This document shows positions 3,545 through 54,808 of a stretch of DNA of 64,000 bases, in pieces; the stretch's first letter is position 1; each line of letters opens with the position of its first letter. The notes under the pieces were generated by a model that ran no database searches, was not told the DNA's origin, and worked only from the letters and a program-made list of their open reading frames with translations. The stretch comes from an uncultured Gammaproteobacteria bacterium (GTDB lineage Bacteria; Patescibacteriota; Patescibacteriia; UBA10025; JAHIVO01). The position numbers and the translations under genes were made by a program. The stretch covers positions 9,665-73,664 of the forward strand of contig CAZVMV010000003.1 in assembly GCA_964628855.1 (NCBI GenBank), in the 5' to 3' direction.

Positions 3545-4903
3545 TTAGCAACCACGCATGACAAACGGTCCGGTCAGAACCGTGCCGAGCTGGAGGCAGT
3601 CTTTGGCGCCGTGTACCTTCTTGTCGCGGCGGGCCGTGACGATGATGTCCGCCAGATGGCAACCGGCATAGTGCGCAGTGACGCGCATGAACCAGGTATC
3701 CTGTTTCGTATTGCCGTCCTCATCGAAATAGAGGAATGAGATCGGTCTGTTTTCGATCTCTTCCTGGAGGATGAAGCGATAGTGGGACTGACAGGCGTCA
3801 GCCAGTATGGTGCCGAAGTTCTCTTCGTCAGAGAAAATGGTCCCTTTCATGCCGCTGGAAACTGATTCCTTCAGCACGAAGCGGGTGCCGTTCATCAAGC
3901 CCTGCCAATATTGCAGTTTCTGGCGTTTGCCGATCAGGAAAGTTCGCGGGATGAACGAACGTATCGTCTCCAGGTGATTGCCCGGTATTTGCGAACGGAG
4001 GATGGATTCGAGTTCCTGGTCGCCTTCGTCATTCCGCAGCAGGGCCAGAACGGCCTTGCAGCCAAGGAACGGCTTCGGCGGGATCAGGAAATCTAAATTG
4101 CCGTTCACATAGTTCGATTGCAGCCAGGCATTCAGTTCGCCGTTGTAATAGAGGAACGGGAAGTCTACGAACAGGCGGTCAGACAGCGGCTGATTGCCAA
4201 ATAACAGCTCGTTCCCGGAGACGGACAGGTCATTTTCTGAAGCGACAACCAGGTTGATGCCATGCAGTTTCAATTCGTCCCGCACGATTTCAATCTCCGG
4301 ACGGTAGAACCGTTCACGGTCTGAATAGAGCAGGACGGCAGATTTGGTCCCCGGATTTTTTTTAGCAATTGTGTCGGCCAGAGCGGTTGCGACGCCGGGC
4401 AGGTGGCGGCCATACGGTTTGAGCGCCGTACGGACGCGCGCGGCTAGGATAGAATACCCTAGACCGTGTTTGTTATGGCCGTCGATTTCCGCGATATGGA
4501 ACTGGCCGTCGGTGCCGAGCAACAGGTCAACCTTGCAGATGCCGGGGATACGGTTCGGATTGAGAGGCTGAAGAGGACGGTAGATGTCTGGGACGCCTGT
4601 GTTGAAGATCCGGCGCAAGCCGCGCCAAGTGGCATTGTGGCCGTAGATGTCCGAGTCGGCCAGCGAACAGAGCCGTCCGAGACCGGCATACGTACCGTGC
4701 AAAGCATAGCCGAGCTGGTTCAGGCGCTCGAGCTGGACATTGTCCAGTTCAAGCACTGACGGCGAAAGGATGAACTTGTGTGACTGGGCTCGCGGACCGT
4801 CCCAGAGGCCACTAGACTGGACGATCTGCCGGACGCATTCGCGTTCCGTACATACGCCGTGAGTGCCTTCACCTTCTGATTCGACATAGGGTTTCGGTTG
4901 CAT
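3545..4903 (-). CDS. ATP-grasp superfamily-like protein, possibly circularly permuted (glutathionylspermidine-synthase-like)
   Basis: 452 aa. The C-terminal half carries FVLKESVSSGMKGT, RFILQEEI and FMRVTAHY...RRDKKVHG. The N-terminal KVDLLLGTDGQFHIAEIDGHN looks like the usual C-terminal Mg/ATP strand. FLGCKAVLALL resembles the GSP-synthase motif. Assigned by eye only. Confidence 0.4.
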   Translation of the reverse strand: MQPKPYVESEGEGTHGVCTERECVRQIVQSSGLWDGPRAQSHKFILSPSVLELDNVQLERLNQLGYALHGTYAGLGRLCSLADSDIYGHNATWRGLRRIFNTGVPDIYRPLQPLNPNRIPGICKVDLLLGTDGQFHIAEIDGHNKHGLGYSILAARVRTALKPYGRHLPGVATALADTIAKKNPGTKSAVLLYSDRERFYRPEIEIVRDELKLHGINLVVASENDLSVSGNELLFGNQPLSDRLFVDFPFLYYNGELNAWLQSNYVNGNLDFLIPPKPFLGCKAVLALLRNDEGDQELESILRSQIPGNHLETIRSFIPRTFLIGKRQKLQYWQGLMNGTRFVLKESVSSGMKGTIFSDEENFGTILADACQSHYRFILQEEIENRPISFLYFDEDGNTKQDTWFMRVTAHYAGCHLADIIVTARRDKKVHGAKDCLQLGTVLTGPFVMRGC

Positions 4904-5003
4904 GAGAAAGCTCCTTCTGAAAAAAATGTTGTAAATGTACGATGGTTATTTCTGTTTTTGATCGGTGCGGTGTATCGATCAACCGCACCAACCAAATCAG
5001 AAT

Positions 5004-5432
5004 TCAGGGCAGGAGCTTTAAAATTTCCAAAAGATTATAGATGGTATGAGTAGGTTTTTGCTTGATGTTATTAGGCAGTTCGTTCCTGAACCGGCCTTGG
5101 CGCAGCCAGATGGTAGTCATATTCAATGAATTGCCGATCGCTATCTCTTTTTTTATCCGGTCGCCGACGACTATGCATGATTCTGGCCGGTTTAACGCGA
5201 GCCGTTTGAAAAGTGTCCGTGATTTGTTTGACGTCGTGATAATTTTTTTAAAAAAACTAGTTATCCCCAGGAGTTTTATCATTTTTTTTCTCCCTGGCAC
5301 TGCGCGGGCCACAAGAATAAGTGTATAACCGCGTTTTCTCAGTTTTGTCAGGACGATTTTAGTTTTTGGCATTAGCCGCCCTAGCTCTGGCTGGTACAGA
5401 GTTCTATTGAAGTCGAAAATAATTCTATTCAT
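5004..5432 (-). CDS. HAD-superfamily hydrolase
   Basis: 142 aa. DFNRTL (motif I-like) and VVGDRIKKEIAIGNSLNMTTIWL (motif IV region). Confidence 0.7.
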   Translation of the reverse strand: MNRIIFDFNRTLYQPELGRLMPKTKIVLTKLRKRGYTLILVARAVPGRKKMIKLLGITSFFKKIITTSNKSRTLFKRLALNRPESCIVVGDRIKKEIAIGNSLNMTTIWLRQGRFRNELPNNIKQKPTHTIYNLLEILKLLP

Positions 5433-5617
5433 ATGATTTTTACATAGGCAAAAAAGCCTCTTGCTAATCCGGCGAAGAGGTTTTCGTTAACTACTTATTG
5501 ATTGTTTACTATGACACTAATTGTCCGTAAGTAAAGAAACCTCTTCGGCAAGAGTAAAATAATGGCGGTAGCAATGCCAACAGAAGTTTTTTACTTGTGG
5601 AAAAATAGTTTTCATAC
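5433..5617 (-). ncRNA. orphan promoter-to-terminator unit (attenuator-like leader or small RNA), includes a leaderless 32-codon ORF (5615..5517)
   Basis: The promoter at 5652-5624 predicts a TSS near 5617. ATG at 5615 opens MKTIFPQVKNFCWHCYRHYFTLAEEVSLLTDN. CGAAGAGGTT (5473-82) is the reverse complement of AACCTCTTCG (5538-47). The terminator lies at 5450-5481. Confidence 0.4.
5450..5481 (-). terminator. intrinsic terminator about 20 nt upstream of the HAD gene start
   Basis: Minus strand reads CCTCTT-CGCCGGATTAGC-AAGAGG followed by C and six U (A-run 5450-5455 on the + strand). Confidence 0.45.
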
Positions 5618-5623
5618 GGAGGT

Positions 5624-5652
5624 AGTTTACACCTCATTGAGCGTGGTGTCAA
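5624..5652 (-). promoter_or_regulatory. sigma70-like promoter TTGACA-17-TAAACT
   Basis: -35 at 5652-5647 and -10 at 5629-5624 on the minus strand. Back to back with the pfp promoter. Confidence 0.5.
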
Positions 5653-5658
5653 ATTTTC

Positions 5659-5687
5659 TTGACTGGAGGACGGTAAAACCGTACCAT
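5659..5687 (+). promoter_or_regulatory. sigma70-like promoter TTGACT-17-TACCAT for pfp
   Basis: -35 at 5659-5664 and -10 at 5682-5687, about 60 nt upstream of the pfp ATG. Confidence 0.5.
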
Positions 5688-5749
5688 TACTGTACCTATA
5701 CGCATTGTAATAATGGTTGATTTGGTGCAAGAATAACTAATATTTGCGT

Positions 5750-6955
5750 ATGAAAACCATCGGCATTATCACCAGCGGCGGGGATTGTGGCGGGTTAAAT
5801 GCTGTCGTAAAAGGGGTGGCCCAGATGGCAAACCGCAAGGGCATTAAAGCGTACGCCATTCCGAATGGCTATGCTGGTTTGTACAATCTCATTGACATGG
5901 ACGCTTTAGTCGAACTGACGCCGTCGAGGCTCGACACATTTAGCATCGGCCTGGCGGGGTCAGAGGCCGGACACTCGCGGGTAAAAATATCCAAAATCGA
6001 AGACGGTAAAAAATATGAACGGGTAAAAGACGGGCTGAAGAAGTTCGACATCGAAGGATTGATCATCAGTGGCGGCGATGATACCGGCAGTGTCGTCATT
6101 GACCTGGAAAAGCACGGCATCAAATGTATTCATGTGCCGAAGACGATGGATTTGGACTTGGTGCCGTATTCTCTTGGCGGCGATTCCACTATCAACCGCA
6201 TTGCCGAGACAGTCCGTGATCTGAAAACGACCGGCCGCACTCACAATCGGATAATGGTTATCGAAGTTTTTGGGCGGTACACTGGACATTCCGCTTTCCG
6301 CGGCGGCGTGGCGGGAGAAGCAGATGCGATCTTGATCCCGGAGATTCCCGTAGAGTTCGGTGAACTGTATCGCCATCTGAAGAAGGTTTATATGAAACGA
6401 ATTATGGAAAGTGACGTGAAAGCCGGGACATACACGATTGTTGTCGCTGAGGGCATCAAGGACGCTTCTGGGAAAGAGCTGTACGACGAATCTGCCGGGA
6501 CTGATTCATTCGGACATAAAAAATTATCAGGTGCCGGCAAGTACGTCGTGCAGGAAATCAAGAAATTAATGAAGGAGGATCCGGATATGGCGCAATTTAT
6601 GAAAGACCAGGGCATGTACGTAGCGGGCCAGTATGATTTGCCGGAAGTGCGTGCAATCGTGCCCAGCCACATTGTCCGCTCTGGGTTTACTTCAGCCTTT
6701 GACGCTAATTTCGGTATGGAAACCGGAGGTGCCGCATTATATCTAATGTTGAATGGCGTCGTGGGAGTGACTGTAACCGGATATGAGAACGGCACCGTCC
6801 ATTACATGGACATAGCCGAGGCGATAAAACAACGGACTGTCGAACTGGAAGAGGTAGCTTTATATGAACAGCTTGGGTTTTGTTTTGGCCGGCCCCGTCA
6901 GGAGTTTTCCGCAAAAATGAAAAAAGTGAGCGGCCTGATAGATAGGGCGTACTAA
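5750..6955 (+). CDS. pfp: 6-phosphofructokinase, PPi-dependent type by signature residues
   Basis: IGIITSGGDCGGLNAV. GGDD in IISGGDDTGS and Lys in PKTMDLDL replace the GGDG and PGTID of ATP-dependent enzymes. ATG at 5750 is preferred over TTG at 5744. Confidence 0.85.
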   Translation: MKTIGIITSGGDCGGLNAVVKGVAQMANRKGIKAYAIPNGYAGLYNLIDMDALVELTPSRLDTFSIGLAGSEAGHSRVKISKIEDGKKYERVKDGLKKFDIEGLIISGGDDTGSVVIDLEKHGIKCIHVPKTMDLDLVPYSLGGDSTINRIAETVRDLKTTGRTHNRIMVIEVFGRYTGHSAFRGGVAGEADAILIPEIPVEFGELYRHLKKVYMKRIMESDVKAGTYTIVVAEGIKDASGKELYDESAGTDSFGHKKLSGAGKYVVQEIKKLMKEDPDMAQFMKDQGMYVAGQYDLPEVRAIVPSHIVRSGFTSAFDANFGMETGGAALYLMLNGVVGVTVTGYENGTVHYMDIAEAIKQRTVELEEVALYEQLGFCFGRPRQEFSAKMKKVSGLIDRAY

Positions 6956-14196: not shown

Positions 14197-14223
14197 AAAA
14201 AAAGGGCCGTGAGGCGACAGCCC
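14197..14223 (-). terminator. intrinsic terminator 20 nt upstream of rsmE start
   Basis: Minus strand GGGCTGT-CGCCTC-ACGGCCC followed by U7 (A-run 14197-14203 on the + strand). Confidence 0.6.
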
Positions 14224-14398
14224 TTATGCCCATGCTACGACCATGCGTCTCTCACGTTGGTAACGGGCCAGCGTTTATTCCGCCATTTCGTAGTCGCCTA
14301 TTGCCCATGACAACTCAGCGCAGCAGGCGTGCCTCACGGCAGCCGAGTCCCAATGCTCAAAGGCATATAGGATCGTTGTGGCTATTCACGATCCGGAC
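14197..14398 (-). ncRNA. orphan ~200-nt structured transcript (riboswitch/attenuator-like leader of rsmE or independent sRNA)
   Basis: Own promoter at 14432-14405. The 10-nt segment 14331-40 is the exact reverse complement of 14206-15, which covers the terminator loop and 3' strand. Direct repeats CATGGGCA-TA-GG occur at 14293-309 and 14213-34. No ORF on this strand. Confidence 0.45.
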
Positions 14399-14404
14399 GG
14401 CCAT

Positions 14405-14432
14405 ATCTTATCACCGCGCTGCAATTAGTCAA
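14405..14432 (-). promoter_or_regulatory. sigma70-like promoter TTGACT-16-TAAGAT
   Basis: -35 at 14432-14427 and -10 at 14410-14405 on the minus strand. Confidence 0.5.
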
Positions 14433-14462
14433 ATTTATAATTTGCTGATACAATGCTTCCAT

Positions 14463-15509
14463 ATGAGCTTTTCTATCGGCATAGTCGGACTGCCCAATGT
14501 CGGCAAGTCGACGTTATTCAAAGCGCTGACCAAAAAACAGGTTGACGCCTCAAACTATCCTTTTTGCACGATCGACCCGAACGTCGGCACGGTCGCCGTG
14601 CCTGACGAGCGGCTGGAAAAACTGGCCAAGCTTTATGACTCAAAGAAAGTCGTCCCGACAGTAGTCGAGTTTGTGGATATTGCCGGACTAGTCGCTGGCG
14701 CTCACAAAGGTGAGGGACTCGGGAACAAATTCCTGTCGCATATCCGGACCGTCGACGCCATCTGCCAGGTGGTACGCAAATTCTCTGACCCGAATGTCAT
14801 CCATGTCGCCAACAAAGTCGATCCCCAGTCTGACGAGGAAACGATCAGGCTGGAATTGATTTATGCCGACCTGGCGACCGTCGAAAAACGGATCGCCGAC
14901 ACCGCCCCAAAGACGAAAAGCGGGGATAAGGAAGCAGCCAAATTCCTGGCGATCTACCAAAAAATAAAGCAGTTTCTGGACGATGGTAAATTATTGTCTG
15001 AAGTTGATTTGTCGGAAGAGGATAAACTTTCCATCCGTGATCTGAATTTATTGACGGTCAAACCGATGTTACGAGTATTAAACGTAGACGAATCCGAGGC
15101 GGCCAAAGACATCCCCGGCTATATCGTGATCAGCGCTAAGGTCGAGTCAGAGCTGGCGGAGATGTCTGATGCTGATGCCAAAGAGTTTTTGCAGAGCTTG
15201 GGATTGCAAAAAACCGGCCTGGACCGTTTGATTACCGCTGCATACAAAGCTCTCGATTTAATAACATTTTTAACGGCCGGACCTGACGAGACCCGTGCTT
15301 GGACCGTAAAAAGGGGCTCGTCTGCACCCCAGGCAGGAGCGGCAATTCACACTGACTTCGAGCACAAATTCATACGCGCAGAAGTGACTCCATGGCAGGA
15401 CCTGTTGGCATGCATGGGTGAAGTTGGGGCGCGTGAAGCGGGGAAAACCCGGACGGAGGGCAGAGAGTATATAGTCCAGGATGGCGACGTGATTTATTTC
15501 CGGATTTAA
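14463..15509 (+). CDS. ychF: redox-regulated ribosome-associated ATPase YchF
   Basis: Starts MSFSIGIVGLPNVGKSTLF at ATG 14463. Has the C-terminal TGS region AGAAIHTDFEHKFIRAEV. The listed start at 14226 only adds unrelated upstream sequence. Confidence 0.9.
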   Translation: MSFSIGIVGLPNVGKSTLFKALTKKQVDASNYPFCTIDPNVGTVAVPDERLEKLAKLYDSKKVVPTVVEFVDIAGLVAGAHKGEGLGNKFLSHIRTVDAICQVVRKFSDPNVIHVANKVDPQSDEETIRLELIYADLATVEKRIADTAPKTKSGDKEAAKFLAIYQKIKQFLDDGKLLSEVDLSEEDKLSIRDLNLLTVKPMLRVLNVDESEAAKDIPGYIVISAKVESELAEMSDADAKEFLQSLGLQKTGLDRLITAAYKALDLITFLTAGPDETRAWTVKRGSSAPQAGAAIHTDFEHKFIRAEVTPWQDLLACMGEVGAREAGKTRTEGREYIVQDGDVIYFRI

Positions 15510-50271: not shown

Positions 50272-51543
50272 TTATTTTTTGCCTGCGGCTTGTTTTTCTT
50301 TATGCCGCATCCGGTCGAAGAAGCCGCCGACATTTGATGTGTACTTCCGGGCATCACTGTAGATGTCGTCATGCCTGGTGTGGAATTTGTCGGTTATGAG
50401 CGTCAGTGCGTTCTTGAGTGAGGCGATAACTTTTTCCATCTGTTTTGCAGGGAACAGCCCATCCTTGTTGCCGTAGATGACGTACGTGTTGGCCTTCACC
50501 TCGGGCAGCTTGTCCAAAATGCCGCCCTTGGCGATCGTAAATGCCTCCCATATCCGCCACTTGAGCCTTTCGAAACTGCCGAGAGCGTTTGCCCGTGAAT
50601 CGGTACCGATATCACGCCCGACATTTTTGTGGAATTGCTTGTCCTGGAGTTCGGCGTCGCGGAAATCATATGTGCCCTGGCCGCCGGCCTCTTCGTATGC
50701 CTGTTGCATCGATTTCCCGAAAGTCGCTTCATACGACCGCATGTATTCGTCAATTTTTTCCTGATCAATATCAAGCCCCGCCTGGCCGCCGCCTTTCCCG
50801 AAGAGGTTTTTCAGGGCCTGGATCGGACCGCCCTTGCCGGCGGAAGTTTCCGGGAAATAACGGCTGGCTAAAGCCAATACACCCTCTTCGTTCACACCCC
50901 CAGGGTGCATCAGTACCAGGTCTTTCACTTGGTCGGGATGCTTGACGGCAAAATCAATGGCGATCATCGAGCCCATGGATGATGACGAGACGCTGAGTTC
51001 CGGTGTGGTCATGGGTTGGCCGGCGACTTCCTCCTGTTTCCGGATGGCTTCGATGGTCCGATTGATTACCTCGGCGAACGGTTCGAACGTGCGTTCGGCC
51101 CGTGACCATTTGCGCCATTCCTGTGGTGCCATATCCGAACCTCCGGTAGAAGGCTGGGATATGAGTATGACGCGTTTTTTTTCCCTCACGGCCATGAGTT
51201 TTTCATACTGCTCGTTTGCGCGGTAGGAAGACCCGTAGCCAGGAATGTGGATTACAGTTCGCTCGTTCATCTCCTTTGCATTCGCCAAGTCATCAGGATT
51301 CCGAGCATCCAGGATCACATATTCGACTTTCATTTTTTTACCCTCCAAGCCCGGCGTTTCAATCTCTACAAATTGAGGATTATTAAACTGCCCCTCGACA
51401 ATTTCCATCTTGCGCTTTTCCTCCTCGGTCAGTTCGCCGTACTCCATGGCCGGAGCAGCCGGTTTTTTTTCCGGTACCGTTTCCTCCACCGGAGGCATGG
51501 GCATTTCTGGGTTTCGTGGCATGGTTTTATCAATTATTGGCAA
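50272..51543 (-). CDS. alpha/beta hydrolase
   Basis: 423 aa. Nucleophile elbow SSSMGS and IHIPGYGSS. Confidence 0.65.
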   Translation of the reverse strand: MPIIDKTMPRNPEMPMPPVEETVPEKKPAAPAMEYGELTEEEKRKMEIVEGQFNNPQFVEIETPGLEGKKMKVEYVILDARNPDDLANAKEMNERTVIHIPGYGSSYRANEQYEKLMAVREKKRVILISQPSTGGSDMAPQEWRKWSRAERTFEPFAEVINRTIEAIRKQEEVAGQPMTTPELSVSSSSMGSMIAIDFAVKHPDQVKDLVLMHPGGVNEEGVLALASRYFPETSAGKGGPIQALKNLFGKGGGQAGLDIDQEKIDEYMRSYEATFGKSMQQAYEEAGGQGTYDFRDAELQDKQFHKNVGRDIGTDSRANALGSFERLKWRIWEAFTIAKGGILDKLPEVKANTYVIYGNKDGLFPAKQMEKVIASLKNALTLITDKFHTRHDDIYSDARKYTSNVGGFFDRMRHKEKQAAGKK

Positions 51544-51621
51544 AGATATTATTGATTTGATATTAATTTAACATACACCTTAAATTCCGTTCAGGCAAAT
51601 AAAAAACCGCCCTTACTTTGT

Positions 51622-52170
51622 TCAATTCGGGGCGGTTGTTTTTTCCTTAAGAAAAGGTTCATAGTCGTACACTTTGAAGTGTACAGTAATGGTACCTTCC
51701 AACTCTTTGGGCAGCCAGACGACCTTCAGGTTCAGCCAAGGCTGCATAGTGATGGTGCGCAGGAATTCCCCGAGGAATCTCCTCTCCCTCTGGGTGATGT
51801 AGGCGGTCCGGTCGGGGTCTGTCAGGCGCGGCCGTTTACGTCGGGAATGTGGGTCCAGCCAGAATTGGCAGGGTATAGATAACGCGCTTTTGTGCCGCTG
51901 GCCGTCAGGATGGAGATCCGCCATCCAGCCGTTCTCCTGACTGCTGGTGAAGAGCCAGACGTCTGTCTGGATTACCAATCGCTGGTCTGCGATATGCTTT
52001 CTTACCGCCGGCCAGTCGAAAAGTCCGAAATCCACAGGATTTATTTTGATTATTGGCAATGTGCTAACCTCCTGTTCTGTATCCAATACGGCAGTGTACA
52101 GCGCTGCGGTCGGGTAGTCAACCTCGATTGACAAGCAGATTATCGGATGGTATCCTAGTGTGAAATTCAA
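51622..52170 (-). CDS. hypothetical protein
   Basis: 182-aa ORF with no motif recognised. Confidence 0.5.
   Translation of the reverse strand: MNFTLGYHPIICLSIEVDYPTAALYTAVLDTEQEVSTLPIIKINPVDFGLFDWPAVRKHIADQRLVIQTDVWLFTSSQENGWMADLHPDGQRHKSALSIPCQFWLDPHSRRKRPRLTDPDRTAYITQRERRFLGEFLRTITMQPWLNLKVVWLPKELEGTITVHFKVYDYEPFLKEKTTAPN
52128..52156 (+). promoter_or_regulatory. promoter TTGACA-17-TATCCT
   Basis: Upstream of the gene at 52199. Confidence 0.5.
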
Positions 52171-52198
52171 AAGAGGACTTTTTCAAGGAGGATTTTCC

Positions 52199-52459
52199 AT
52201 GAGTGATGACACGGTTCAATGTCACATGTTACCAGGCAGGGGGTGCAGTATCTGTGATGGCGTGTTCCCGGAGGGCAGGATTGTATGTACGGGCGGGCAC
52301 ATGGTCCACCAGTGGTACTCACGATCGGGAGCGTCGGAGGAGATGCATTGCGTCCCGGTTGATGAGGTTTGCAGCATCTGCAAAAAACCGTTCGGGATCG
52401 GCGAAATTTGTGCCGATGGGCATATCATCGGGAAGACATACCCGAAGCCGGCGCGATGA
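52199..52459 (+). CDS. small Cys/His-rich protein with duplicated CSIC...C..GH module (86 aa)
   Basis: AAGGAGG lies 7 nt upstream of ATG 52199. The two module copies are GCSICDGVFPEGRIVCTGGH and VCSICKKPFGIGEICADGH. Confidence 0.55.
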   Translation: MSDDTVQCHMLPGRGCSICDGVFPEGRIVCTGGHMVHQWYSRSGASEEMHCVPVDEVCSICKKPFGIGEICADGHIIGKTYPKPAR

Positions 52460-52480
52460 TACTATCGTCAGCGCGAACAA

Positions 52481-52507
52481 CAGGTTCCAGCCGGGAGCCT
52501 GTTTTTT
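52481..52507 (+). terminator. intrinsic terminator
   Basis: 8-bp stem CAGGTTCC / GGGAGCCTG followed by T6. Confidence 0.7.
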
Positions 52508-52515
52508 GTGAAAAT

Positions 52516-52714
52516 AAAAAAAGCCGGGAGAATTGAGACTAGGGTCTCGGGTGCCGGCTTGGTGTACAAGGCTCGCTCACTAGTGGAGCGGGCAGAAACG
52601 TTTTCGTCCTCGCGGACATACGTATGCTGCACGAGCCCCGGCGCTATTCTCCCGGACAGTAAACCGGTCACGTTCCGGTACGGCAGCAGGTTTAACCGCC
52701 AGACAGCCTGCTGC
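52516..52714 (-). ncRNA. stand-alone ~200-nt GC-rich structured small RNA (unknown class)
   Basis: Has its own promoter and a stem plus U7 terminator. Hairpins at 52683-714, a GCGA-loop rod around 52606-17, and a perfect 10-bp long-range pairing between 52646-55 and 52524-33. The only ORF has no SD and crosses two terminators. Confidence 0.5.
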
Positions 52715-52720
52715 TCATGC

Positions 52721-52750
52721 ATGGTATACCTTAATTTATGTGAGTGTCAA
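52721..52750 (-). promoter_or_regulatory. promoter TTGACA-18-TACCAT
   Basis: -35 at 52750-45 and -10 at 52726-21 on the minus strand. Confidence 0.5.
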
Positions 52751-52753
52751 GTC

Positions 52754-52780
52754 AAAAAAACTCCCCGGAGGGAGTTTTTT
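52754..52780. terminator. bidirectional intrinsic terminator after rnj
   Basis: ACTCCC / GGGAGT stem with loop CGGA, flanked by A7 and T6. Confidence 0.65.
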
Positions 52781-52803
52781 AATTGTCGAAGTTGTTGAGT
52801 TTT

Positions 52804-54573
52804 TTAGACTTCAATCACTACTGGTAACACCATCGGCCGCCGCTCCGTCTTTGTAAACAGGAACTGGCCGATCTGGTCTCGGATCTTGTTCTTGATGAAG
52901 GATTCGTCAGCGGACGTACGAGGGTCGCGATCCTTTAGCAGTTTTTTCACCTTGTCGCGCACCTGGTCGATAAGTTTCTGGTTTTCCTTCATATAGATGA
53001 AGCCGCGTGAGATGATGTCTGGGGAGTTTATCAGGTCACCCGTGCGTGAGCTGATTTTGACGATAATGACGAACATGCCGTCCGCGGCAAGTGCCTGACG
53101 GTCACGCAATACGACGTGGGAAATGTCCCCGATCCCTAGCCCGTCCACAAAGACATAGTCAGTCGGTACTTTTTTGTTCATAATTTTAGGCTGGCCCTTG
53201 CCGAATTCAAGAATGGAGCCATTATCCAGTACGAAAGTATTTTCCGGGCGGAAACCGTCGCGGGTGGCCAGTTTGGCCGCTTCTTTCAGGAAGGCATGGT
53301 TGCCATAGACTGGCAGGAAATAGGTAGGGTTGATCTGGTGCAGGACAGTGAGGATGTCCTGGGCCGTGGAGTGTCCGGACGAATGGACATCCATAATATC
53401 AGAATGGACAACGTTGTCCGATAAACGGTAAAGGTTGTCCTTGAGCCGCTGGATGGTCCGTTCATTCCCTGGAATAACTGAAGAAGAAAAGACGATCGTG
53501 TCTGATTTCTGGATTTTTACGAAACGGTGCGTTCCGTTGACGATTCGTGAAAGCACTGCCTGGGCTTCGCCTTGGGCGCCGGTGCAGAGGACGATCACCC
53601 GTTGGTCAGGGAATTTACGGATGGCCTCGATCGGGATGAGCGTTTCCTTGTGCACTTTGATATAGCCGAGTTTTTTGGATATTTCGACGTTATTTTTCAT
53701 GCTATAGCCGTCGAGCGCCACCTTTTTGCCGATCGATTCGGCGTATTCGAGGACGCGCTTGATCCGTTCGATCTGCGAGGAGAACGTGCCGATGATGATC
53801 CGGCCGGGCGCCTGGCGGATGAGGCGGAAGATGTTGTCGTACATGACGTGTTCCGGGACCCGGGGATTGGTATGAGTGGCGCCGAGGGATTCGAGCATCA
53901 GGATGGTCGGTTTCGGCAGTCTGGCCAGCTGGGAATATTCGACGCTGGCACGGCCGATCGGATTCGGTTCATAAGTCCAGTCACCAGGATGGATTACGGT
54001 GCCGGACGGGGTGTTCAGGATGACGCCGACCGCGTCCATGATCGAGTGGTCGACGGGGAAAAATCCTACGTTGAATTGGCCAAGGCGGATGCGTTGGCTG
54101 ACGTTATTGATCGTAATCGTCTTCAGTCGGCTGGCCGCGCCTTTCTTGTAATCTTCGACGCGGTGTTTGACCATCGCCAAAGTGAGCGGGCGACCGACAA
54201 TGGCCGGATAGCCCAGTTTCTCCAGTAAAATGCCGCTGGCGCCGATATGGTCCAGGTGGCCGTGCGAGAAAATGACGGCGCGGATATTTTTTTCTTTCCC
54301 GCGAAGGTAGGAGGTGTTGGGGATGATGTAGTCTATCCCTGGCATGTCCTCCTCGGGAAACTGTACGCCCATATCGAGGACGACAATATCATGGCCGTAT
54401 TCAAAAACGGTCATGTTACGGCCGACTTCTTCCTGTCCGCCGAGGGGGATAATTTTCAGAGTTTTTGTGCCGCTGATGGGCTGGGGTTTTTGAGTTTGCG
54501 GTCGCTGGTCCGGTGGCAGAGGCGTTTGATGACCCCGGCTGCGGAAGCGACGTTTTTTGTTTTTATGTGACAT
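52804..54573 (-). CDS. rnj: ribonuclease J
   Basis: Metallo-beta-lactamase HGHLDHIG plus beta-CASP and C-terminal domains. MSHKNKKRRF start at 54573. Confidence 0.9.
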   Translation of the reverse strand: MSHKNKKRRFRSRGHQTPLPPDQRPQTQKPQPISGTKTLKIIPLGGQEEVGRNMTVFEYGHDIVVLDMGVQFPEEDMPGIDYIIPNTSYLRGKEKNIRAVIFSHGHLDHIGASGILLEKLGYPAIVGRPLTLAMVKHRVEDYKKGAASRLKTITINNVSQRIRLGQFNVGFFPVDHSIMDAVGVILNTPSGTVIHPGDWTYEPNPIGRASVEYSQLARLPKPTILMLESLGATHTNPRVPEHVMYDNIFRLIRQAPGRIIIGTFSSQIERIKRVLEYAESIGKKVALDGYSMKNNVEISKKLGYIKVHKETLIPIEAIRKFPDQRVIVLCTGAQGEAQAVLSRIVNGTHRFVKIQKSDTIVFSSSVIPGNERTIQRLKDNLYRLSDNVVHSDIMDVHSSGHSTAQDILTVLHQINPTYFLPVYGNHAFLKEAAKLATRDGFRPENTFVLDNGSILEFGKGQPKIMNKKVPTDYVFVDGLGIGDISHVVLRDRQALAADGMFVIIVKISSRTGDLINSPDIISRGFIYMKENQKLIDQVRDKVKKLLKDRDPRTSADESFIKNKIRDQIGQFLFTKTERRPMVLPVVIEV

Positions 54574-54721: not shown

Positions 54722-54808
54722 TGGTGCCCAGGGGGAGAGTTGAACTCCCATAGCCTTACGGCTACACGGCCCTGAACCGTGCGTGTCTGCCAATTCCACC
54801 ACCTGGGC
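54722..54808 (-). tRNA. tRNA-Leu (anticodon CAG), CCA encoded
   Basis: Hand-folded cloverleaf. Acceptor GCCCAGG / CCTGGGC, anticodon loop TTCAGGG, long variable arm, T-arm GGGAG-TTCAACT-CTCCC, discriminator A plus CCA. Confidence 0.92.

Follow-up and report, generated by a model that had tools for sequence, protein, structure and literature searches.

A credible orphan small RNA gene downstream of rnj in Kerfeldbacteria-related Patescibacteria

The 64,000-nucleotide (nt) stretch analysed here (contig CAZVMV010000003.1, positions 9,665 to 73,664; hereafter the window) contains a minus-strand unit (52750-52516) between the terminator of rnj, the gene of RNase J, and that of a convergent gene encoding a zinc-ribbon protein of 86 amino acids (aa). 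The unit is probably an independently transcribed gene for a non-coding, structured small RNA (sRNA) of ~198 nt (52714 to ~52517), which would represent an undescribed, lineage-restricted family of Kerfeldbacteria-related Patescibacteria. A sequence-only reading of the window had proposed a stand-alone gene for a non-coding structured RNA at this place, and comparison with a homolog in a related genome supports that proposal through the promoter, the U tract, the indels and the convergent neighbour. We regard the unit as a credible new orphan sRNA gene, whose product would be an accessory and not a housekeeping RNA.

Conservation of the unit in a related genome

We searched 80 rnj loci from GTDB species representatives with nhmmer and a covariance model (R1). 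The sole matching locus, L001 (5844-6062, nhmmer E = 6e-32), comes from a Patescibacteria metagenome-assembled genome and encodes an RNase J that is 94% identical to that of the window, and a second metagenome contig of the same lineage, L087, carries a copy that differs from that of L001 in a single base, located past the U tract. The L001 unit is found ~1 kb from rnj, between a divergent gene for a 280-aa secreted-type protein and a convergent GNAT gene, so that the upstream neighbour is this divergent gene in L001 and the rnj terminator in the window. A homolog of the 280-aa protein was not found in the window, and the GNAT gene is present without the RNA unit in L083 and L085.

What the two copies share includes both ends of the predicted transcription unit. 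In the window, a promoter scan found a -35 hexamer TTGACA (52750-52745) and, after an 18-nt spacer, a -10 hexamer TACCAT (52726-52721), together matching 10 of 12 positions. L001 has the identical -35 hexamer (5811-5816) and TATCAT as its -10 hexamer, at the same spacing, while the sequence of the spacer has diverged and the upstream context is different. At the 3' end, a C (52523) is followed by a U7 tract (52522-52516), the candidate site of intrinsic termination, and L001 has U6 in the same place. The gene that comes next is convergent in the window as well as in L001, with no co-directional open reading frame (ORF) downstream of the unit in either, which argues that the unit is not a leader or a riboswitch.

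Neutral divergence between the two genomes is near saturation, with identities of 49.5% at four-fold degenerate sites of rnj and of 57% at third codon positions. Over the aligned columns, the RNA reaches an identity of 75% and includes an identical run of 41 nt, in which hairpin P2 (see below) is found, as compared with a longest identical run of 32 nt in the 1770-nt rnj. These values show conservation of the RNA far above the neutral level, i.e. strong selection acting on the nucleotides themselves. The unit had also been described as GC-rich, and its GC content does exceed the mean of the window (57.6% vs 49.8%), but the excess is modest, falling within the top 7% of 205-nt segments.

Architecture and 3' end of the predicted RNA

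Independent minimum free energy (MFE) folds of the window and L001 sequences gave the same architecture, and RNAalifold concurs. Two hairpins at the 5' end (P1 and P2) and a 7-nt linker are followed by a long-range helix, P3, that closes a domain with two branches, P4 and P7; P4 has two tiers and leads to a three-way junction with a variable rod (P5) and a small hairpin (P6). All promoter elements, hairpins, the rod, the pairing of 10 base pairs (bp), the U7 tract and the flanking terminators listed in the sequence-only reading were found where it had placed them.

P1 is the 5'-terminal hairpin (52714-52683), predicted by folding, in which eight base pairs enclose a 16-nt loop with a conserved GGCGG; its strands are GCAGCAGG (52714-52707) and CCTGCTGC (52690-52683), the latter reading CCUGCUGC as the 3' strand of the RNA. 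P2 (52679-52663) is the hairpin ACCGG-AACGUGA-CCGGU with arms at 52679-52675 and 52667-52663, and both this hairpin and the single-stranded linker J2/3, UUACUGU (52662-52656), are invariant between the window and L001. Folding pairs the 5' strand of P3, CCGGGAGAAU (52655-52646), perfectly over 10 bp with its 3' strand, AUUCUCCCGG (52533-52524). Between these strands, folding and comparison with L001 define a P4-P5-P6 domain (52642-52553). Within it, P4 is made up of P4a (GCCGG/CCGGC) and P4b (GGCU/AGCC), with a conserved 12-nt bulge, UUGUACACCAAG (52569-52558), between them on the 3' side. The rod P5, GCAG-ACGT-GTCC[GCGA]GGAC-ACGT-CTGC (52630-52592), varies at its apex, where L001 has 15 nt more, and P6 (52589-52575) is a predicted hairpin (C)GCUC/GAGC(G). 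The second branch of the domain, P7 (GAGAC-CCUA-GUCUC, 52548-52535), has an invariant stem and a loop that varies, being CUUU in L001.

The resulting 44-pair model forms standard pairs at all 44 positions in both sequences. Only five of the ~50 substitutions between them fall in paired columns, and all five keep pairing (two compensatory changes and one wobble among them): there is one G-C to A-U change in P1, another at the base of P5, and a U-A to U-G change in P3 of L001. When the 3' partners are slid by one to three columns, pairing falls to 28-44%. The structure conservation index is 0.87 for the two sequences, and helices are more conserved than junctions, as seen in J3/4 (window AGC, L001 AAUU) and J4/7 (window ACCC, L001 GCGU). 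The MFE of the window sequence (-80.1 kcal/mol) is lower than that of dinucleotide shuffles (-68.5 +/- 4.7 kcal/mol, z = -2.5), although the homolog argues more strongly than this value that the unit is no product of chance.

The palindrome CCGG occurs six times in the 205 nt from 52512 to 52716, as compared with 1.47 expected, and at least six copies are found in 0.5% of such segments. All six are kept in L001 and all are part of helix strands. The same interval has three ACGT palindromes, where 0.57 are expected, and two copies of GTAC. We found no explanation for the enrichment in CCGG.

As for the 3' end, the sequence-only reading had recognised the 10-bp long-range helix, which does exist, but had assigned it the role of a competitor of a local two-tier terminator stem. 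Our analysis reverses these roles. In partition-function folding of both homologs, P3 has a pair probability of 0.88-1.0 and the outer stem of the local hairpin one of ~0, and forcing the local two-tier hairpin costs ~6 kcal/mol in each; nor is this stem among the terminators that the scan of the window picked up. Since P3 dominates thermodynamically and ends one base before the U tract, we take P3 itself to be the terminator stem, in which case the local hairpin would be at most a transient, co-transcriptional intermediate of kinetic origin.

Elsewhere in the window, a generic search for a long-range helix plus a T run returned a second perfect 10-bp GC-rich long-range pairing on the minus strand (14206-14340), in which GCCGTGAGGC and GCCTCACGGC, 135 nt apart, are immediately followed by a T7 run; there is partial overlap with the beginning of a plus-strand ORF (14226-15509). 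When all loci were searched in this way, nothing comparable was found near rnj.

Possible function and alternative explanations

If the unit is indeed an sRNA gene, transcription would start from the sigma-70-type promoter at G52714, the seventh base after the -10 hexamer and the first of P1, which we infer to be the start. It would end at the U7 tract, with P3 doubling as the helix that closes the domain and as the terminator stem. The product would be a stable RNA, with its ends held in a 5' hairpin and a 3' helix, that acts in trans, probably as a protein ligand or scaffold, or as a base-pairing RNA. Its likely contact surfaces, both invariant and exposed, would be the P2 loop AACGUGA, the linker UUACUGU and the bulge UUGUACAC. 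Within the window, a search for mRNA targets complementary to the conserved loops gave chance-level 8- to 9-mers only. Mimicry of 16S rRNA was considered as well, as GCCUUGUACAC equals positions 1386-1397 of the E. coli 16S rRNA (11-12 nt), and was rejected, the identity lacking significance (11% and 2.5% of shuffles).

Several observations weigh against this reading. Folding z-scores are moderate (the above -2.5 for the window and -1.8 for L001), and a 10-bp helix enclosing ~128 nt would make an unusual intrinsic terminator. The sequence-only reading had proposed homologs and their covariation as a check, and a homolog was indeed found (L001/L087), but there are only two independent sequences and their covariation is not significant, 129 of 500 shuffles reaching the observed score. 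This shuffle control is uninformative because there are only two sequences, so that the covariation is suggestive and not demonstrated; moreover, 41 of the 44 pairs never vary and provide no evidence either way on the structure. The neighbours of the two copies differ and, apart from rnj, carry no RNA-related annotation. Since no partner, target or linked gene was found, the mode of action given above is inference only, and function is still a guess because the unit was found in just one other related genome.

Patescibacteria, also known as the candidate phyla radiation (CPR), have small genomes, and to our knowledge very few of their non-coding RNAs have been described beyond rRNA, tRNA, RNase P RNA, signal recognition particle (SRP) RNA and transfer-messenger RNA (tmRNA). 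If a stand-alone 200-nt RNA is constrained by purifying selection more strongly than the neighbouring RNase J gene, it would count as a functional RNA specific to its lineage and merit an entry in the RNA family databases. For now its value is limited: it comes from only two species-level lineages and close relatives lack it, its covariation is not demonstrated, and it offers no functional lead.

No known family could be assigned to the unit. Rfam 15 (4227 models) gave 0 hits when the whole window was searched at gathering scores, and at E <= 10 it gave none over the RNA body of either homolog, RNase P models and aptamer classes included; in the region and both homologs, what E <= 10 brought up was limited to terminator-like matches, which fall on that of rnj, and a snoRNA fragment of 13 nt. 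Similarly, ARAGORN found no tmRNA, and a tRNA-Leu(CAG) is the sole RNA that Rfam or ARAGORN recognises within the window. The closest parallels may be the orphan structured bacterial RNAs that have emerged from surveys of GC-rich intergenic regions, such as the raiA motif RNA of ~200 nt (PMC10861870, PMC11109978). Like these, the unit would stand alone with its own promoter and terminator, is richer in GC than the sequence around it, has several helices with highly conserved nucleotides, and lacks both an adjacent regulated ORF and an established biochemical function. In contrast to raiA, which is spread over whole phyla, it occurs in two species-level lineages, and it has no similarity to raiA in sequence or by covariance model.

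We also considered that the unit is an orphan riboswitch- or attenuator-like switch in which the CCGG strands re-pair, so that P3 and P4a alternate with the local GCCGG/CCGGC terminator, the fold being chosen by a ligand or protein and the terminated product serving as a sensor sRNA. Trans-acting sRNAs derived from riboswitches do exist, for example SreA/SreB of Listeria and the B12-controlled EutX/Rli55. The unit resembles them in having a closed multi-helix domain, a closing helix that abuts the U tract, alternative 3' pairings that exclude each other and no need for a downstream ORF. The six conserved CCGG sites (vs 1.47 expected), all in helix strands, would fit such a switch, as would helices that are invariant in sequence, which is what one expects of strands that each have alternative partners. 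However, in both folds a helix stands directly before the U tract, so both would terminate and there would be no on/off read-out; nor is there a downstream gene in any representative of the unit, co-directional ORFs being absent after it in both genomes. The local terminator has an equilibrium probability of ~0 at a cost of 6 kcal/mol, junctions J3/4 and J4/7 vary, unlike a ligand-binding core, and no aptamer family was matched in Rfam 15 at E <= 10. A switch of this kind is therefore unlikely. A bolder version, in which the unit is the first representative of a new class of structured regulatory RNAs in Patescibacteria, able to switch folds via helices made of six interchangeable CCGG palindromes and functionally tied to the RNase J gene, which it follows in both genomes, is somewhat less probable still; if it were true, the CCGG-palindrome RNA might be, for example, a decoy resistant to RNase J or a regulator of RNA turnover.

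An alternative that requires no transcript is a DNA-level element, either a cluster of palindromes (CCGG, ACGT) that serve as protein-binding or modification sites, or a site of recombination where rearrangements concentrate. The excess of both palindromes (6 vs 1.47 and 3 vs 0.57), the invariant sequence of the helices and the position of the unit at synteny breakpoints downstream of rnj would all agree with this. One would not expect such an element to lie between a promoter of fixed spacing and a U tract that are both conserved, nor to retain its helices through two compensatory double substitutions; the variable rod, too, differs in length and sequence and is nevertheless a hairpin in both. 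The unit is, furthermore, present in a single copy in the window, and we consider a DNA-level role improbable.

Patchy presence and absence among close relatives, together with the different context in L001, raises the question of a guide, bridge, retron, omega or similar RNA, part of a mobile or defence element, whose protein partner was lost or is encoded elsewhere, and the size and multi-helix shape of the unit would be compatible with this. In neither genome, though, is there an adjacent gene for a reverse transcriptase, transposase, recombinase or Cas protein, the neighbours being RNase J, the zinc-ribbon protein, proteins without annotated function, an alpha/beta hydrolase, GNAT and RrnaAD. 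The window has neither repeats nor additional copies of the unit: we found no second copy, no pair of template and variable regions of a diversity-generating retroelement (DGR), and no miniature inverted-repeat transposable element (MITE). Searches of viral, phage and plasmid collections gave no match either. Moreover, both genomes have the unit after rnj and before the zinc-ribbon gene, a sign of vertical inheritance, and we give an origin in a mobile element equally little weight.

A divergent housekeeping RNA that covariance models miss in this phylum is very unlikely. The size, the promoter and terminator of its own and the GC excess would be typical of such RNAs, and GUCCGGG and CCCGGCUU resemble what we take to be the consensus of the two P4 strands of RNase P RNA, with a possible bulged U included. 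However, the universal flanks of P4 (GAGGAAAG and ACAGAA) are absent from the unit, its P4-like helix continues as a plain 10-bp stem in an RNA of ~200 nt, and the U tract directly follows the P4-like strand, leaving out the 3' strands of P2 and P1. The only GNRA-capped apex, GUCC-GCGA-GGAC on the rod, where domain IV of SRP RNA would be, is not kept in L001. For tmRNA, with its tRNA-like ends and tag reading frame, ARAGORN found nothing in the window but the tRNA-Leu, and Rfam gave no match. The likeness to 6S RNA extends to a size of ~200 nt, a sigma-70-type promoter and, if the proposed mechanism is right, a stable structured RNA acting in trans on a protein. In contrast to 6S RNA, the unit has no end-to-end rod with a central bubble and no Rfam match, and it is patchy and not universal; its first 54 nt fold in both homologs as two local hairpins, one of them with a compensatory change, which rules out a 6S-type rod. 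The earlier failure to fit RNase P, tmRNA, SRP or 6S RNA to the unit holds. A clean absence at the same site in a close relative, although it concerns that site only, would also be odd for an essential RNA.

Finally, a small protein gene, whether the 84-aa ORF (52468-52722) or a 96-aa antisense ORF, is hardly tenable, even though the ATG and first 26 codons of the former are in frame in both genomes and a purine run (AAGG or GGGG) is found 6 nt upstream of the ATG. Relative to L001, indels of +1, +15, -1 and -1 break the frame, the first of them after codon 26, and up to there substitutions, read from the alignment, are distributed 5:5:1 over codon positions 1, 2 and 3 and are mostly non-synonymous. 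Together, the frame-breaking indels and this non-coding-like pattern rule the 84-aa ORF out as a gene; the protein-like conservation whose discovery would have favoured it was not seen. A 39-nt block is without synonymous change, as compared with 49.5% identity at four-fold sites of rnj. The ORF crosses the U tract and the neighbouring terminator, as had been described, but it does not begin 2 nt after the -10 box as stated there: the ATG (52722-52720) overlaps the hexamer by 2 nt. The starts and ends of antisense ORFs are unrelated between the window and L001, and a query of concatenated sense and antisense translations found no similar called protein among 5.8 billion. By all these measures the unit is not protein-coding.

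Distribution and genomic surroundings

The distribution of the presumed sRNA gene appears to be narrow and patchy, because the unit is cleanly absent at the same intergenic site in a relative with an RNase J of 89% identity. In this relative (L003/L083/L084), the terminators of rnj and of the zinc-ribbon gene are a few bases apart, and precisely the ~240-bp unit is missing. Other genes follow rnj in L002 (RNase J 93%) and L085 (86%), with no unit in the DNA examined, and the same negative result was obtained for the DNA examined from L083, L084 and L091-L093. Filter-free searches of the 15 closest loci and of L091-L093 gave chance-level partial matches only, e.g. one in L003 (1620-1702) that is antisense inside uvrC. 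A degenerate 31-nt pattern scan of metagenome contigs, which required exact loop sequences and missed L087, returned only the contig of L001 itself. In viral contigs there were no matches for two patterns, and the two matches for a third, both in coding sequence, were attributed to chance and rejected by the R1 model. The clade is sampled by only ~five genomes (according to RNase J homologs in the 5.8-billion-protein set and contig look-ups). Given so few genomes and a pattern with exact loops, "rare" here means not found with these limited searches. One further nhmmer match, in L068, falls inside the N-terminal coding extension of rnj and was therefore dismissed as chance.

Read along the strand of the unit, the genes come in the order SecG, SBP_bac_5, tRNA-Leu, rnj and the unit, followed by the zinc-ribbon gene on the opposite strand, a gene for a 182-aa protein and an alpha/beta hydrolase gene. 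The 589-aa product of rnj is an RNase J whose closest relatives belong to uncultured Patescibacteria near Kerfeldbacteria. Its gene ends with a stop codon at 52804-52806 and is followed by a terminator (minus strand, 52780-52754), a hairpin and T run read in the sequence, whereas the terminator of the convergent gene was located on the plus strand by the terminator scan (52479-52503, with the feature extending to 52512); both flank the RNA and are outside it.

The order rnj, RNA, zinc-ribbon gene is common to both carriers, and vertical descent therefore fits. The region downstream of rnj is a rearrangement hot spot in this clade (window 50272-52803; L086 4805-13335; L083 11771-21400). A block of ~7.3 kb with genes for GNAT, an RrnaAD-type methyltransferase, GT2, PIG-L, a carbamoyltransferase, QueC and Vut_1 separates the RNA from the zinc-ribbon gene in L086; in L083 the block is found between the 146-aa gene and the hydrolase gene, and it is absent at this place in the window. 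In L082 (Logan SRR14932662), the sequence is 100% identical to window positions 51975-52819 and then diverges completely within the last rnj codons (L082 846-901 vs the window from 52820 onward), which reflects either a strain-level breakpoint or a chimeric unitig. The contig of P0004 (JGI 3300075153), from a relative with an RNase J of 79% identity, has a 68-aa ORF with no Pfam match on the same strand as rnj and 114 nt after it (genes at 4471-6183 and 6297-6503).

The tRNA-Leu(CAG) gene (54722-54808, minus strand) is located between the SBP_bac_5 gene and rnj, and is found in the same place in L001 and L002. The zinc-ribbon gene (52199-52459, plus strand) has a strong Shine-Dalgarno sequence, and its product, without a Pfam match, contains two similar CxxC...GH half-repeats that give it the look of a zinc ribbon; divergent homologs of 99-103 aa are encoded at the same place in L083 and L086. 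RNase J itself starts with an extension of ~35 aa (54468-54573, minus strand) that precedes the metallo-beta-lactamase domain and is basic and rich in proline and glutamine (MSHKNKKRRFRSRGHQTPLPPDQRPQTQKPQPISG). The corresponding extensions of its relatives vary in length, and it was one of these that gave rise to the spurious nhmmer match in L068.

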